DNA from: Eledone cirrhosa | Lineage: Eukaryota | Reading direction: 5' to 3' | Assembly (NCBI GenBank): GCA_964016885.1 | Contig: OZ024745.1 | Coordinates: 107,198,001-107,262,000, forward strand | Length of the DNA stretch: 64,000 nt | Shown: one piece after another, positions 20,790-57,740 of the stretch | Position numbering within the stretch: position 1 is the stretch's first letter | Layout: each line of letters opens with the position of its first letter | Notes under the pieces: model-generated | Databases searched by the model: none | Seen by the model: only the letters and a program-made list of their open reading frames with translations | Told to the model about the DNA's origin: nothing | Made by a program: the position numbers and the translations under genes

Positions 20790-21790
20790 GAATTATTTAC
20801 ATTATATATATTGGACGGATAGGTGACCTCATCTTGTTTTGTTGTTAACACAACATTTCGGCTGATGTACCCTCCAGCCTTCATCAGTGGTCCTACTGAT
20901 ATTATTATTAACGTTTGTTCAGGTCACTGCCTAGAATTGTACTCAGAATCTTGAGGTTAGTAGCCCGCTTTTTAACCACTTTTTTCTTTTCTCTCGTGAA
21001 ATTTTAGGGCTTATAAACTGATATTTTTCTATCCTTCCTCCATACCTGTTCCCATATACAACTCATATATGCATTAGGTCTGCTTAGGAGGTTATTGTGT
21101 CCTAGCATATGTGCTGCCTCTTTTAATTTTCGTATTTACCAGGGATGTACTCTGTTTATTATTTTAACTTCATCCCACAGGGGAAGGTGGTCTCCGTTTT
21201 TCCATACATGATCAGCTATACCCAATTTATCGATCTCTCCTCGTGTCACAGCTTTACGATGTTCTTCTACACTTATTTTGAGGGGGCGGCCTGTTTCGCC
21301 TTTGTATAACCTACTACAACTGTATGGGAATACACGCAGTCTTTGGTCATATTCTCTTTTATTGGTGGTACAACTCGAAGAAGATATTTGCGAAGTGCTG
21401 TATTACTCTTGAATACTGTCCTGATGTCATATGGACTGCATATCTTTTGTATCTTTTCCGAGAGGCCTTTTACATAAGATAGAGAGACTGTAGTCAATTT
21501 GGGGGTTTCATCCTCTCTCCCTTTCCTAATTGGAGTGGATAGTATGTTTTGGGGATAGTTGTTGCTTAACAAATTGTTACTTAGCTTGATCATTTCTTCG
21601 TGGTGTTTATCGGGATCGCTACTTATATTCTTTGATCGATGTTTTAGGCACTGAACCATCCCTCTCTTTACACGGTATCGATGGTAGGAATTGTAGTTGA
21701 GGTATCGTCCAGTGAAGGTTGGCTTGCAGTATACGGATGTCTTGAACCTATACTCAGTGCGTGCTATTAATACATCTTTTGATATCAAAA
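20790..21790 (-). mobile_element. 5'-truncated Penelope-like element (RT thumb + GIY-YIG endonuclease + pLTR)
   Basis: TSVYCKPTFTGRYLNYNSYH...; CVYS...YKGETGRPLK..VEEHRKAV..IADHVW...WDEVKII...RKLKEAAH across a frameshift. Confidence 0.9.
20848..20891 (-). ncRNA. Minimal type I hammerhead in the PLE 3' region (pLTR), slightly degenerate
   Basis: CTGATGA-aGGCTG/CAGCC-GAAA-TG-TT^GTGT, about 170 nt downstream of the GIY-YIG coding end on the same strand. Confidence 0.65.
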
Positions 21791-22007
21791 CTCATTTTTC
21801 TTTAATACATAATATTCTGCATTACACACACACACATATATATATATGTTATCCGAAATAGATGATAAGAGACTCTCGTATCGAGAACGATGGATGAGCG
21901 TGCAGTGAATTGATCAACAACCAACTTAACACTTTCGTGTAACTCTGAAGTTCAGTTAGTGCGATGTAGTGCGACAAGGTTGGAATTTTTAATAACAAAG
22001 ATATTCC

Positions 22008-25306: not shown

Positions 25307-27508
25307 CTAAGGCGGGTAAAATTACCGAGATCCATGGACGAGTTCTCTCCAGCGGTCTCTGTCCCTCATTATCGCTGCCATATCCTGCATCTCCAACAGA
25401 CCAGTGTCTGTCCTTAGGGCATCAACATATGTTAACCTTGGTCTTCCCCTTCTAGTGTGTCCATGTAGGAGCTCCCAAAGGAGCACTGAGTGCAATGTCA
25501 ACTCTGGATGTCGGTGAGCATGTCCAGCCAACCTCAGTCTCCTCTGTGTCACTTTTGAGCTGACTTTCGGGATGCTCCCATACAGCTCTGAGTTTTTCAT
25601 CCTCAGTGTATACTGATTAATGTTCAGAGCCATCCTCAGCATTCTCGTGTAGCACCCATCCACCATCTGAGTGAGTCTCTTGGTCAGTGTCCAAGTCTCA
25701 GACCCACACAGCAGCACAGACTCCACTACAGCAATGAAGAGGCGGATTTTCAGGTCTCTACGAAGGTCCGACTTCCACACCGATCTCAAGCTGTGACACG
25801 CCGCCCAGGCCTTGCTCTTCCTCTCAACCACATCATCTTCCGTATTCCCAATCTTTGCTCCCAAATACAGGAAGTCCTCAACCAATTCCAGCGGCTTCCC
25901 GCCTACATTAGTGATCCCCTCTGGCTTCTCAACATTCTCTACCAGATATTTTGTTTTAGTCTCATTCATTCTCAGCCCCACACTCATCGATACAGTCTCA
26001 ACCTCCCCCATCAAATCCTCTGCCTCCTTCACTGTATTTGTCACCAAAACTATGTCGTCGGCAAATTCAGCATCCGATACCTTTTTCGCCCCAACTCTGC
26101 TACTCTGAGCCGGTGCTACAGTAAAGCCAGAGTCCTGGTGTTTATCCAGTGCAAGGCGCATACAATAGTCCACTACGATGATAAAAAGGTAGGGAGCCAA
26201 TGTATCTCCCTGGAGCACTCCAGCCAGTATCTCAAAGAACTCTGTCATCCCATCAGGTGTAATGACTTGGGCTTTGGTGTTGGTGTAGAGCAGTGATATC
26301 AGGTCCACTATCCTCTTGGGGATTCCATAAGCCTGTAAGATCTTCATCAGGCAGTAACGGTCCACAGAATCAAAGGCCTTTCTAAAGTCAATGAAAACCA
26401 TGACCGCAGGAAGGCACTTTGCTCTAGCTCCCTCTAATATCCTCCTCAGCATCAGGATGTGACTGGTGGTTGATCTACCCTCTCTGAAGCCGTTCTGGTT
26501 GTCCCTGAGCTTCTTCTCCATCTCAGGCTGGATCCTGTTAAGAATCATCCTGTTGAGGGTCTTTGCCACAAGTGACGTCAGTGAGATCCCCGGTAGTTGT
26601 TGGTGTTAGAGAGATCTCCCTTCTTTGGCACTGGGACGATGTTACTGTTCCTCCACTGATTCGGGGCAACTCCTTTCTCCAGTGCCCCGTTACAGAACCC
26701 CAGGATGATATCATCAAAATCACACCTCTTCCTCACCTCTGATTCCACTCCATCTTCTCCATGAGCCTTGCCCTCCTTGATCTTCTTCTTGGCTCTCTGA
26801 AGCTCCTCTCTGGTGAAGGGCTCTGTCTCAACATCCAGTTCCTCAAACAGCCGCCTGATCTCCCCAGTGCTCTGGGCTGTGGAGGGTGGCTCTCCTAGTA
26901 GGGTCCTAAAATGGTCTAGCCATTTCCTCTTCCTATCCTCGGGCCCCGTTCCCTGGATCTGACTCGAACACCTTTTCTTCCTCCCTGTGATCTCGTTGAT
27001 GATCATCCAGCTCTCCTTACATCCAGATCTGTCAACCGCTCTCTCCACACTTCTGATCTTCTCTATCAGTGCCTCCTCTCTGACCTCAGTGTAAGCGGTA
27101 CAGAGCTCTTCCCTCATCACCTCCACAGTCTCCATCCTCTCCTCCGTAGGATCAGCATAGAATTGGTCCCTGGCAGCTTTCAGGTGTTCTCTGGCTGCAC
27201 ACACTTTTGGGTTTGCAGAGCTGACGTGCTTCCCTTTGTTCTTTTTCCTCGGCACCAGGGTTTCACTTGCTTTCGCCACTGCATTGGTGAAGTGCCCGTA
27301 CCTCCTCGTCGTACTCTCCTCAGTCCATCCAATCTCTCTCTCCTCTGACTCTCCACACAGAAAGCACTAAACCTGTTTCTAACTTCCACTGTGAACCTCT
27401 CCTGTAGCTTATCATCTTCCTTGAAAGCTCCCCAGTCATAGATTGTTCTCCGGGGCTGAGCCTTGCTCTTTCTTAAGCTCACACGGACCTCACTCATAAC
27501 AAGCCGGT
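25307..27508 (-). mobile_element. RTE-clade LINE, 5'-truncated, frameshifted RT
   Basis: [72 protein letters not shown]. Confidence 0.95.
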
Positions 27509-51354: not shown

Positions 51355-51460
<106 letters not shown>

Positions 51461-51647
51461 GTATATGTATATATATATATGTATATTTATATATATATGT
51501 ATATATATATATTGGAATAAATGCTCTGAAATAGCGATATATATGTGAATATAGACATAGAATATTCGAAAATATTCTGTATGTTTATAATAAACATTTT
51601 GAAGACCTAATCGCTATAGAATAGAATACGTCACGTATTACAATTAT

Positions 51648-51736
51648 ATTCTCGATAAAAGCAAGGGAAGTAATCTACGCGTTTCATTCTTGTTAGAAAT
51701 CATCAGGACCACATATCCAGTGCTTTTATCGAGAAT
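51648..51736 (-). ncRNA. Hammerhead, retrozyme unit 1
   Basis: Reverse complement of 52157-52245. Confidence 0.85.
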
Positions 51737-51957
51737 GACACAGCTAGAGACTTATAGAATACTTAGCTGTGTACAGGAACTGGTTTGAAAGAGCGGTTGC
51801 CGGTCCGGCAGAAATTAGAAATTGGAATAAATGCTCTGAAATAGCGATATATATGTGAATATAGACATAGAATATTCGAAAATATTCTGTATGTTTATAA
51901 TAAACATTTTGAAGACCTAATCGCTATAGAATAGAATACGTCACGTATTACAATTAT

Positions 51958-52046
51958 ATTCTCGATAAAAGCAAGGGAAGTAATCTACGCGTTTCATTCT
52001 TGTTAGAAATCATCAAGACCACATATCCAGTGCTTTTATCGAGAAT
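51958..52046 (-). ncRNA. Hammerhead, retrozyme unit 2 (C3U core mutation)
   Basis: TTGATGA instead of CTGATGA. Confidence 0.75.
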
Positions 52047-52156
52047 GACACAGCTAGAGACTTATAGAATACTTAGCTGTGTACAGGAACTGGTTTGAAA
52101 GAGCGGTTGCCGGTTCCTGTACACAGCTAAGTATTCTATAAGTCTCTAGCTGTGTC

Positions 52157-52245
52157 ATTCTCGATAAAAGCACTGGATATGTGGTCCTGATGATTTCTAA
52201 CAAGAATGAAACGCGTAGATTACTTCCCTTGCTTTTATCGAGAAT
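52157..52245 (+). ncRNA. Hammerhead, retrozyme unit 3
   Basis: ATTCTCGATAAAAGCA..GTGGTC-CTGATGA-tTTCT aaca AGAAt-GAAA-CGCG-TA^GATTAC..TGCTTTTATCGAGAAT. Confidence 0.85.
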
Positions 52246-52466
52246 ATAATTGTAATACGTGACGTATTCTATTCTATAGCGATTAGGTCTTCAAAATGTT
52301 TATTATAAACATACAGAATATTTTCGAATATTCTATGTCTATATTCACATATATATCGCTATTTCAGAGCATTTATTCCAATTTCTAATTTCTGCCGGAC
52401 CGGCAACCGCTCTTTCAAACCAGTTCCTGTACACAGCTAAGTATTCTATAAGTCTCTAGCTGTGTC

Positions 52467-52555
52467 ATTCTCGATAAAAGCACTGGATATGTGGTCCTGA
52501 TGATTTCTAACAAGAATGAAACGCGTAGATTACTTCCCTTGCTTTTATCGAGAAT
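52467..52555 (+). ncRNA. Hammerhead, retrozyme unit 4
   Basis: Identical to unit 3. Confidence 0.85.
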
Positions 52556-52776
52556 ATAATTGTAATACGTGACGTATTCTATTCTATAGCGATTAGGTCT
52601 TCAAAATGTTTATTATAAACATACAGAATATTTTCGAATATTCTATGTCTATATTCACATATATATCGCTATTTCAGAGCATTTATTCCAATTTCTAATT
52701 TCTGCCGGACCGGCAACCGCTCTTTCAAACCAGTTCCTGTACACAGCTAAGTATTCTATAAGTCTCTAGCTGTGTC

Positions 52777-52865
52777 ATTCTCGATAAAAGCACTGGATAT
52801 GTGGTCCTGATGATTTCTAACAAGAATGAAACGCGTAGATTACTTCCCTTGCTTTTATCGAGAAT
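52777..52865 (+). ncRNA. Hammerhead, retrozyme unit 5
   Basis: Identical to unit 3. Confidence 0.85.
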
Positions 52866-52989
52866 ATAATTGTAATACGTGACGTATTCTATTCTATAGC
52901 GATTAGGTCTTCAAAATGTTTATTATAAACATACAGAATATTTTCGAATATTCTATGTCTATATTCATATATATATATGTATATATATA

Positions 52990-53044
<55 letters not shown>

Positions 53045-53105
53045 CAAGTAAGTATGTTTTGAAACAGTGAGCAGGTTTGAATTTAGAAAATAGAATAGCT
53101 TTCAC

Positions 53106-53330
53106 CGTATTTTTGACTAAAGGAATTTTAGCCTGATAATGGGGTTTCGAACCCTCAGATAAATTGAAAAAGATGAGGATGGGTCATATGTTGGTGTAAT
53201 GGTAGCACATTGGTCGCGATAACTACAGATGTGGGTTCGACTCCCACGTACGTCAATACTCATCTTTTTCCATTCATCTGAGGGTTCTAAACCCCATTAT
53301 CAGACTAAAATTCCTTTAGTCAAAAATACG
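53106..53330 (+). mobile_element. tRNA-like Pol III cassette enclosed by 75-bp inverted repeats
   Basis: Arms 53106-53180 and 53256-53330; A box TGGTGTAATGG 53192-53202, B box GGTTCGACTCC 53234-53244. Confidence 0.75.
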
Positions 53331-54320
53331 ATCTCACCCGACTCTGTAATCTGCGGCTCGTCGGACCCCTTGAAATGTTAGTAGAAAACATATATATATG
53401 TATTTAACTATAACACGTTCGAACTTTATTATATAAAATTATAACCGTTATCATTTACCTAACGTATACTGTATCAATAATACCTAATTTATAACCATAT
53501 ATACCTCCCTGTATCTTTCTATACATAATTTTTAGTTAACTTCTAAAATTCTTGATTATTATTTATTTCGAACTATGAATAATTAATGCATTTACACCCT
53601 GTTATATATAGGTATATATTTAACTTTAGCATGCCTCAATCTATTATTTTATTTTTATTTTCGTTATCCTTTACCTAACATATACTGGCTCATTAATATA
53701 TATCTATATATATAATCGTTATTTAAATATTTCTAACAATAAGTACTTCATAAGATTTACATACCATATATGTTGACGATGATTATCTTCGGTAAAGTTT
53801 ACATTCAGGAAAATATTCAACAGTGTAAACTTTCTTTCCGCTGGCCAGCTAAATCCTTTAAATATTATCCTCATAAAATTCCGAAGTTTAGAAATGTTAA
53901 CACACTTATAGAATTTACAAAACTAATAAATATAAATAACCAGCAATTTAAAAAAAAAAAAAAACTAAAATCTTGATTCTTCACCCTAAAATAGCATAAA
54001 TTAAATATTTTCAAACTTAACCGTTTAACTTTCGGAAAATCTCCTTCTACATATATTACCCCTTATTTTTCCCTCTCTATATATCCTATTCCAGTGGCTC
54101 TCGTTGACTGTTTTCCCAGATAAATTGTAGTATCATACATTTTAAAATCTCTATAACTGTTACATTAAGCAACGTTTTTCTTACTCAAACATACTCTATT
54201 GAATTTATTATGTTTTCGCATTTTCTCATTATTAGGGTATACATGTTAAACTTTCTCTTAGGTTAATAACTACCTTGATTAAATCTTAACCATTTAACAT
54301 CTCAGGGTATGTGATGTATC

Positions 54321-55309: not shown

Positions 55310-57740
55310 ATAGTTGCATTTATCTTGCTTTATGTTCATACGAGTTATCACCAAGTCACAACCAGTGACCTCAAGAGTCAACAAGGTCCGCCATGTTCAA
55401 GAAAAAAACATACATACACACATGCATCTTTAGGTGTTTAAACTTGTGATGCACGTATATTGACAGAATCTTCCTTAGTATAGGGGCAGTTCCCATTAGT
55501 ACTATCCTTTGAATTTCTTCTATACGCAGGTTTCCTGGGATTTTGGATAAGTAATCATTAGACCCCTTAGGTATCATTCCTAGAGTGCCCACAACCACTG
55601 GTATTATTTTATTTCTCAACTTCCAAATTTTTCCAATTTCTATCTCCAGGTCTTTATACTTGCTCAATTTTTCAAATGTTTTTATAGATACATTCTTGTC
55701 TATTGGAACGGATATATCAATTAGCAGGCATACCATCTTTTTAAAGTCCTTCAGTATTATATCAGGTTATTTGCATCTATCTTTCGGTCTGTTTGGATGC
55801 TAAAGTTCCACAAGATTGAGATGTGATCTTTTTCAAGTACGGGTGGTGGTTGATGATCCCACCAATTCTTTTGATGGCGCAGGTCAAAATGCTTACACAT
55901 TATCCAATGTATGTATTGTGCAGCTCTGTTGTGCCTGTTTAGGTATTCTGTTGGAGCTATAGGACTTCACATTGAAATTATATGATCAATGGTCTCTGGT
56001 CGTTTTTTACATACACGGCATAATGGGTTGCATCCATTTTTTATTATGTTGGCTTGATAATTTTCTGATGGCAGACACTGATGTTGTGCTGATATCAGTC
56101 CTTCAGTCTCCGATTTCAGTCTAGAGGAAACCAACCATTGATGGTTTAAAGTTTTGTCAACATCAGGATTGTTAGCTCTTTGTGGGTATTTTCCATACAG
56201 AGGCTTTTCTTGCCATTTCTTAGCCAGTTTCTGTAGCAGTTCTTTCTTTGCAGTTACTTTTACCTGCTTTGTTTTTTCTGTGTTTTTCATTTCAGCAGTA
56301 AATGGAACTTCTGAAACTTGTAGTTCATTACTGTATCTTTGTGCATCTTTTGTAAAGGAGTATGATCTTTTGATGCTTTCATGTTTCAAAACGAGTTTGA
56401 TCTTCCAATAATCTGATTCCCTTAGATATGTAGATAATCCAATTGTTGCAATTTTCAAAGCAATATCTAACTGGATTAACCCACATCCTCCTTCTTTCCT
56501 AGGGAGATATATTCTATCTGTATCTGCCTTAGTGTGTTGCATTTTGTGCATGGTTAAGAATTTTCTAATTTTTGTATCGAGCCTACGGATCTCTGTGCTT
56601 GACCAGTTGATGACATTGAAACTGTAGGTTACTACTGATATGGCAAGCGTGTTTATGGCATCGATCCTATTCCTTGCATTCATTTCCGTTCTTAAGATTG
56701 CTCTTACTCTGCGGTAACATTCCTTCCTTATCATTTCCCTCATTGTCGACTGCTTGATTCCGTCTCCTTCAAGTTCTCTTATCACATTCCCGCGATCAAG
56801 ATTAATGTCTGAAATTCTCAGCAGCTTTCCTCTGGTGAACGTGGCTTTGGCGCTTTATCTAGTCCAAACTGCATTTTAATGTCATCACTGAACTGCTTCA
56901 CAGTGGATAATAGCCCTTGCAATAGCTAATTTTTTTGGCAAATAATTTCAGGTCATCCATGTAGAACAAGTGATTAATGGTTTTGCATAGATTTTATATC
57001 CATGTTTTGTTTCATCGAGCATTTTACTTAATGGTATAAGTGCGATGCAGAATAAAAGCGGTGATAAAGAGTCACCCTGAAAAATTCCATAATTAATATT
57101 AACTTCTCCATCTTCCAGTGATTTTTTTTCACTATTCAAAATCAGTGTCGTTTACCATGTCTTCATACTGAATGACAGGAACCTCCTGACAACGGGAGAT
57201 ATTTTGAAAATCTCTAAACACTTTACAATCCAACTGTGTGGCAAACTATCGAATGCTTTTTTGTAATCCATCCAAGCAATTGATAGATTTTTGTGTCTAT
57301 TGTGACAATCTTCCAGTATCATTTTGGTGAACCAAAAGCTGATCTTTACAGCCATATGAGCCTCGTTTACACCCTTTCTGCTCATTGGGAAATAGATCAT
57401 TTGTTTTCAGGTGATCATATGTATATTCAGTTAGGACTGATGTTAAAATGTTATACATTGTGGTCAAGCAAGTTATCGGTTTGTAATTTTGGGGATTTTG
57501 TCTCATCATTCTTCGGAAGTAGGAATTTAATGCCGTTAACTAGTCATGATGGTATCTCTTTTGGCTCCTTAACTATTTCATTGTAAATTTGGGCTAACAG
57601 CTTATGAGACTCTGGCATTTATCCAAAAATTTGGTATTTTGTCTTTCCCTGGGGATTTCCATTTGCTGGATTTTCTAAGAGCTAAACGCAGATGTTCAAC
57701 TGTTTTATTTGCACTTCCTCCTTGGGTGGTATTGATTTAG
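55310..57740 (-). mobile_element. Dong/R4-clade non-LTR retrotransposon (RT + CCHC + restriction-like endonuclease), degenerate
   Basis: NYKPITCL, WMDYKKAFDS, GIFQGDSLSPLLFC, YMDDL, CRVC..ETIDHIIS, LIDISVP.D.N..K..EKLSKYKDLEIE; 3' end abuts (TAA)n. Confidence 0.85.

Follow-up and report, generated by a model that had tools for sequence, protein, structure and literature searches.

Nearly five copies of one 310-nt sequence lie between two (TA)n tracts in the genome of Eledone cirrhosa, some facing one way and the rest the other. How did a tandem array and its own inverted copy come to be placed there together? We examined this locus within the window, by which we mean the whole 64,000-nt stretch of DNA analyzed, and scrutinized its relatives across the genome.

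Array Layout in the Window

Alignment within the window resolved the array into 310-nt units, 99% identical and repeating with a period of 310, in two inverted arms. Unit positions are numbered from the first base after the predicted ribozyme cut, which is window position 52218.

51373..51510, unstranded, (TA)n target on the left side (the tract spans 51373-51512)
51511..52114, minus strand, left arm, 604 nt, 1.95 units, with the 'long' RNA 3' end at unit position 165
51511..51545, minus strand, 'tail' of 35 nt (unit positions 131-165), confined to the left outer end
52113..52114, unstranded, head-to-head junction of the two arms, both 5'-truncated; 2-base overlap, unit position 182 joined to 206
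52113..52967, plus strand, right arm, 855 nt, 2.76 units, with the 'short' RNA 3' end at unit position 130
52218..52527, plus strand, predicted 310-nt monomer or circle; a second one at 52528-52837
52968..53042, unstranded, (TA)n target on the right side (the tract spans 52967-53042)

A sequence-only reading of this DNA had described nearly five 310-nt units between (TA)n tracts, and this count held, at 1.95 minus-strand and 2.76 plus-strand units of 99% identity. The spacer of about 22 nt that it had placed at the inversion does not exist: nothing is inserted there, the arms overlap by two bases at 52113-52114, and the apparent loop of 16-22 nt is the unmirrored portion of the left arm. With a length of 310 nt and a GC content of 34%, the unit fits the retrozyme range (~170-400 nt, GC under 45%). 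The array contains no open frame of 110 aa or more and is thus non-coding; long frames are absent, and no ORF of an autonomous Penelope-like element (PLE), that is, reverse transcriptase (RT) plus GIY-YIG, was found within it. No host gene exon was recognized near the array, and open frames resembling retrotransposon RT fragments occur in the window at 25322-27366, 21273-21791, and 55371-56854. The dsRNA of ~580 bp that had been envisaged for this layout would need read-through from a flank and would then have to compete with cleavage at 52217.

A Hammerhead Ribozyme in Each Unit

Every unit carries a type I hammerhead, in which helix I comprises 6-bp and 3-bp proximal helices plus a 16-bp distal helix, helix II has 4 bp over a U.U at its base, and helix III is palindromic (ACGCGU). 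The cleavage site is GUA, and the hammerhead fold gave z = -5.1.

52155..52245, plus strand, type I hammerhead, predicted cut after 52217
52465..52555, plus strand, type I hammerhead, predicted cut after 52527
52775..52865, plus strand, type I hammerhead, predicted cut after 52837
51648..51738, minus strand, type I hammerhead, predicted cut after 51676
51958..52048, minus strand, type I hammerhead with a C3U core change at 52016, predicted cut after 51986

The claim of one hammerhead per unit therefore stood for the type I architecture, present in all five; a canonical core was found in four of the five, as the inner minus-strand unit has C3U, which would likely impair its activity. Additional hairpins named in the earlier reading were recovered in the monomer fold (z = -4.3), and folding of 1.3 units predicted that both palindromes pair into a double hammerhead. 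A covariance-model search, which had been suggested as a check, returned no Rfam family at gathering score within the window, the best hammerhead match being HH9 (E 0.39); hence, it is motif, fold, and covariation that support calling a ribozyme here. Rfam matches to miRNAs at the junction were rejected as generic hairpin matches.

Covariation was scored against family B, a sister family described below, in most copies of which pairs 1-2 of helix I and 2-3 of helix II were changed on both sides. These pairs were counted by anchor, since RNAalifold on the mixed families misaligned the 3' strands and found helix II only. Changes fixed at individual loci in or near the ribozyme (positions 2, 20, 259, 276, 277, 284, 287, 292, 294, and 295, plus a one-base insertion) affected none of the conserved core bases, being located in loops or at N7, or keeping the pairing; one of them, T287A, converts the helix II U.U into A-U. 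One extra base two positions after the cut site was observed in L222 and in all 14 units of L119.

A Young Family Dispersed Across the Genome

A similarity search of the 3.0-Gb genome gave 264 matches, and the 150 matches listed were 99-100% identical. The window locus together with 28 other loci among the matches listed, chosen by sequence similarity alone, formed a first set of 29 loci, 25 of which were arranged minus-then-plus and four single-armed, with none tail-to-tail. The giant inverted repeat that the earlier reading had described here, allowing for an assembly artifact, is thus genuine, being the usual family layout, with unmirrored inner ends and unequal outer ends at many loci. It is not peculiar to this locus; it is a normal insertion product carrying PLE-type ends.

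The genome search for copy number, proposed earlier, revealed a dispersed multi-locus family. The long-end junction pattern had 800 forward-strand matches, and extrapolation from its 53 distinct places in C1:1-97.5 Mb yielded an estimate of ~1,600 loci, nearly all inside (TA)n. Two-armed loci held a mean of 10.9 units (50 loci), and the family may total roughly 5 Mb of the genome. In many loci both arms were several units long and 97-99% identical to the unit of the window. Single units differed from the majority sequence of their own locus at 0.14% of positions at most, a ceiling to which alignment noise also contributes; this low divergence within loci indicates a recent burst. The exact ribozyme pattern had 636 matches (control, 0). 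A second element sharing the 3' end was considered as the source of surplus end-pattern matches and rejected; these are other haplotypes of the same family, which the exact ribozyme pattern consequently undercounts. Unit size, 34% GC, a hammerhead per unit, covariation with the sister family, and the many near-identical loci all support the earlier call of a young non-LTR retrozyme, and they support assigning the family to that class as it is defined at the sequence level. The cephalopod part of that call agrees with the 3.0-Gb genome size, the microsatellite load, and a SINE tail, all of which suit an octopod. At L134 a whole insertion was duplicated with an identical junction, and independent insertions lay 1-4 kb apart at L132/L133 and at L135.

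One Long and One Short Outer End

The outer ends of the arms are RNA 3' ends and fall into two classes, at unit positions 165-172 (long) and 127-139 (short). Long ends match TA over ~2 nt, and short ends, which lie in an AU tract, match the target over up to 8-9 nt. One long and one short end were combined in all 76 two-armed loci with both ends readable, 24 of which were chosen by similarity alone, four by ribozyme pattern, and the remainder via end patterns. The tail, 35 nt in the window, was accordingly confined to one outer end, with this pairing at 76 of 76 readable two-armed loci. As a check on bias, all 53 long-end places on C1:1-97.5 Mb were followed: 51 had a short-end partner, one met a gap, and one was single. 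Among nine short-end places without a listed partner, eight were single-armed and one had a long-end arm of 12 nt. The end tally left out L032, in which a SINE interrupts one arm, and the left of the two copies at L134; loci with the TA pattern broken on both flanks escape the end-pattern search.

The flanks were AT-rich or (TA)n microsatellite targets. A target duplication of 12-15 bp was visible at one non-TA target in non-repetitive DNA (L113/L118) and is not measurable inside (TA)n. This end structure matches the footprint described for PLEs, namely an inverted 5'-truncated copy, a one-sided tail of 30-40 bp, and (TA)n targets.

Shared Haplotypes and Independent Inner Ends

Majority alleles were equal between the arms in 49 of the 50 loci where 200 or more positions had twofold coverage in each arm, compared with 392 of 2450 cross-locus pairs (16%). 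Scripted binning distinguished 25 haplotype classes among loci, one of them a mixed no-variant bin, and at nine loci (L128, L133, L143, L147, L158, L222, L224, L226, and L233) a variant private to one sampled locus occurred in every covered unit of both arms. Fixed variants were common to both arms even where one arm had only ~1 unit, and scattered single-unit changes were unhomogenized in most arms. The exception was L058, a mosaic in which four of six units on one arm differ from the other arm.

The 142 inner ends were distributed flatly over the unit (chi-square p 0.15), with two lying within 5 nt of the ribozyme cut (4.6 expected). Arm lengths, which were entered by hand and include approximations for a few inner ends blurred by internal hairpins, followed an exponential distribution (mean 1.7 kb, KS p 0.31; maximum 45 units) and did not differ between long-end and short-end arms (p 0.19). 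Inner ends of partner arms were uncorrelated, with 15 of 68 pairs within 30 nt against 20% expected; L119, L123, and L133, which have complex junctions, were dropped from this count. Junctions showed overlaps of 0-7 bases or short templated inserts. One of them, at L123:2099-2370, contains 272 bp of foreign sequence that is 96-98% identical to a repeat concentrated on C25:19-24 Mb and was likely captured by a template switch. A double variant recurred in nine scattered units of the 45-unit arm, where DNA-level exchange must therefore act.

Sister Families and the Search for a PLE Partner

Family B is an older sister retrozyme with a ~314-nt unit, most copies being 90-96% alike (1955 candidates). 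This family and further diverged subfamilies (L060, L105, L159-L188, and L251-L280) share whole-unit homology, the same layout, and TA targets, and the stretch kept across sister families spans unit positions 59-172. Family C (L094, L098, L100, and L189-L218) consists of short hammerhead palindromes in (TA)n. Its copies again pair a long with a short arm and have a tail of ~70 nt, a compensatory change in helix I, and a helix II like that of the 310-nt family. A few copies extend 5' into non-coding sequence; most arms stop at a common point in the 5' strand of helix I, which a linear RNA template with a defined 5' end would produce. By contrast with this common stop, an endless template is likely for the 310-nt family. 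L176:1000-1660 is a chimera, in which a family C arm meets a family B array head-to-head; the switch falls in the hammerhead core that both families have in common, a hint that a single enzyme may serve both.

Another hammerhead repeat (L099:8900-9901 and L083) is spaced at ~511 nt; its helix II has the same U.U at its base, and its helix III is likewise palindromic. The array in the window is adjoined by a tRNA-containing repeat of ~260 nt (53043-53345; also L282, L286, and L288), with 2068 candidates and an Rfam tRNA above gathering in L282 and L286. Within (TA)n this repeat, too, is arranged as partial tandems facing head-to-head, whose two ends are again a long and a short one; a simple motif scan found no hammerhead in it. 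The repeat is possibly SINE-like and mobilized by a PLE.

The genome also contains PLE families whose RT plus GIY-YIG frames are open. Several with C-terminal GIY-YIG were found at L089-L107, often head-to-head; one has copies ~97% identical in protein, and some carry minimal hammerheads. No autonomous PLE with homologous termini was detected in a small sample of 50 PLE loci, drawn from 150 scored of 10,597 GIY-YIG candidates. Nor was a PLE joined to the 310-nt sequence beside 30 diverged-motif loci or at family B and family C loci, which yielded sister retrozymes only. Two candidate partners were discarded, the flank of L044 being a Helitron-like helicase fragment and the neighbor of L141 an unrelated PLE across a gap.

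Unit-Like Sequence in Sequencing Runs of Other Organisms

Twenty sequencing runs (17 studies, 18 organisms) contain 0.63-0.88 of the unit's words, and assemblies were checked for three of them (X4, X17, and X19), along with one raw run (X24). X4 and X17 each gave one looped 340-nt contig at depth 12-14, together with a host SINE piece in mostly read-sized records at depth 2-4, as trace contamination would give; the near-identical sequence in these two runs looks like such contamination. From X19 came a contig of 280 nt (depth 5) that matched the unit at 99% identity and lacked the host SINE, and X24 (1.9 Gb of raw reads, with the organism label of a word-containing run) gave no retrozyme read. 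No RNA run containing the unit was listed among the sequencing runs, and a 35-nt word had no exact match in metagenome or viral contigs. Horizontal transfer of the 310-nt family is very improbable.

A Model for the Insertion

We propose, with a probability of roughly 0.55, that the locus is an insertion made by a PLE RT/endonuclease that primed from both strands of the cut target and copied one RNA, probably a circle. Tandem transcripts would self-cleave, probably as double hammerheads via the palindromic helix III, and a host ligase would close 310-nt circles. PLE protein acting in trans would then cut both strands of (TA)n, a target whose self-complementarity makes both 3' ends equivalent primers. 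One 3' end would prime at the AU tract (127-139) and the other ~35 nt further 3' (165-172); both strands would be copied round and round the RNA until random drop-off, and the two cDNA ends would be joined by microhomology or a short templated insert. We thus infer a PLE enzyme, an RNA circle, and self-cleavage behind the layout, end classes, haplotype sharing, and length distributions that the genome displays. A more specific form, a double rolling circle in which a PLE dimer on one circular ribozyme RNA conducts two reverse transcriptions 35 nt apart, one per target strand, is tentative, with odds a little short of even. If true, it would account jointly for the tandem arrays of retrozymes and for the inverted copy with a one-sided tail of PLEs.

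Several observations count against this model. Shared haplotypes would also be expected from one RNA haplotype per germ cell or from conversion between arms. The single-armed loci (four of 29 in the first set and eight of nine short-only places) also weigh against it, as do the L058 mosaic, the DNA-level exchange in the 45-unit arm, and the lack of a PLE with homologous termini among the loci sampled. In the available text on the PAc protein, the start site in vitro shows no strand difference and uncleaved RNA is used (PMC11167929), and eight of nine Xenopus retrozyme dimers are reported to have failed to cleave in vitro (bioRxiv 10.64898/2026.07.22.740005).

The two main alternatives assume a different template. 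Were the same PLE machinery to draw each arm from its own circular RNA molecule, as a dimer carrying two RNAs with one site fixed per start, and were one source to dominate the pool at a time, the strict pairing of long and short ends would be explained equally well, and two RTs would not have to chase each other around a 310-nt circle; that several RNAs can participate is evident from the L058 mosaic and from the chimera of families B and C at L176. The nine loci with private variants in both arms would then need clonal pools that left one sampled copy each, and the 25 haplotype classes (counting the mixed no-variant bin) likewise speak against this explanation, which we consider unlikely. 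Double priming by a PLE on a long linear read-through RNA from an existing array, uncleaved and resembling twin priming, would dispense with the circle. PAc accepts unprocessed RNA in vitro (PMC11167929), the U.U base of helix II and a 2-bp helix III predict weak monomer cleavage, and the allele order at L058 could be read off one linear multimer. Under such a scheme, however, a new variant fixed in all units of both arms requires a one-unit bottleneck, and arms of up to 45 units with an exponential spread and no clustering of ends at the cut site, together with the preservation of ribozyme structure among locus-fixed variants, make it quite unlikely.

Two further explanations were weighed. 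Short PLE-terminal pieces could insert, expand by unequal crossing over, the satellite route favored in the accessible part of bioRxiv 10.64898/2026.07.22.740005, and have their arms homogenized by conversion. The recurring singleton variants of the longest arm and the duplicated locus L134 fit such growth, yet scattered changes stay unhomogenized where fixed variants are common to both arms even at ~1 unit, and in many loci both arms run to several units that are 97-99% identical to the unit in the window; growth at the DNA level is accordingly improbable. Fold-back, either by self-priming, as proposed for PLE palindromic junctions (PMC3846280, in the part available), or as a long-read artifact, could be suspected from the window junction alone, which resembles a hairpin with a 16-22 nt loop. 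Unrelated inner ends in partner arms, not mirror-matched over 68 loci, argue against it, as do outer ends differing by a fixed tail, flanks differing between the sides, and foreign inserts in some junctions (L123). Fold-back is scarcely credible and already largely refuted.

Comparison with Known Systems

Comparisons here draw on the available portions of the cited papers. Like the metazoan non-LTR retrozymes of Cervera and de la Pena 2020, the 310-nt family has tandem low-GC units of ~300 nt with a type I hammerhead in each, and axolotl HHR_Amex2 shares the U.U at the base of helix II (PMC7229834). Circle-templated tandem cDNA and a PLE helper were proposed there, and no insertion footprint is described in that portion, whereas here, from genome sequence alone, most loci are head-to-head in (TA)n with a one-sided tail (PMC7229834). 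Palindromic helix III and dimer cleavage of hammerheads have been described previously (PMC4209133). Li, Clavereau and Pollet 2026 also regard retrozymes as non-autonomous PLE derivatives, on the evidence of co-occurrence and pLTR homology in vertebrates; our evidence is end structure and haplotype pattern, and the homology to an autonomous PLE that they report was not found in the PLE loci sampled here (bioRxiv 10.64898/2026.07.22.740005). Unlike their local unequal crossing over, the end structure and haplotype pattern favor arrays made at insertion. In the passages available, the mobilizer of animal retrozymes has so far been argued from co-occurrence and homology only (PMC7229834, bioRxiv 10.64898/2026.07.22.740005).

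EN+ PLEs (Penelope/Poseidon, Neptune, and Naiad) also form partial tandems and place an inverted 5'-truncated copy head-to-head. Like the 310-nt family, they bear a tail of 30-40 bp on one side, insert into AT-rich or (TA)n targets, and have an internal RT start, with duplications of ~10-15 bp where these are visible (PMC3846280, PMC8557442, PMC11167929), and the origin of such tandem or inverted insertions with a one-sided tail is termed undefined in the sections available (PMC3846280, PMC8557442). In vitro, the PAc protein, a predicted dimer, cuts and extends both strands, and its RT starts inside the RNA at two adjacent sites that bound the tail (PMC11167929); the paired end classes of the 310-nt family match this behavior. 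Non-autonomous PLEs of Chlamys such as MRC1 are likewise non-coding, multicopy head-to-tail, and PLE-dependent; they are described with 3' homology to their autonomous partner (PMC8557442), whereas none was found for the 310-nt family. In contrast to EN+ PLEs, as portrayed in the text available, the 310-nt family lacks an ORF, its inversion is the rule rather than occurring 'often', its arrays reach 45 units of one 310-nt monomer, and its long/short pairing is strict in every readable two-armed locus. L1 twin priming also uses both target strands as primers and yields head-to-head inversions with junction microhomology, the second primer landing at variable internal sites of a linear polyA RNA. 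The 310-nt family, by contrast, has two fixed starts, separated by 26-45 nt, and inner ends that fall independently of each other.

Within the literature covered, to which subscription papers and supplements did not belong, we found no report of a strict one-long-one-short head-to-head footprint with a shared template for retrozymes. Our verdict is that the family is a non-LTR retrozyme with unusually clean PLE footprints. Across its estimated ~1,600 near-identical insertions, which are marked by haplotype, one can read where copying started, where it stopped, and which template was used on each strand, and the 310-nt unit is a candidate substrate for the existing in vitro PLE assay.
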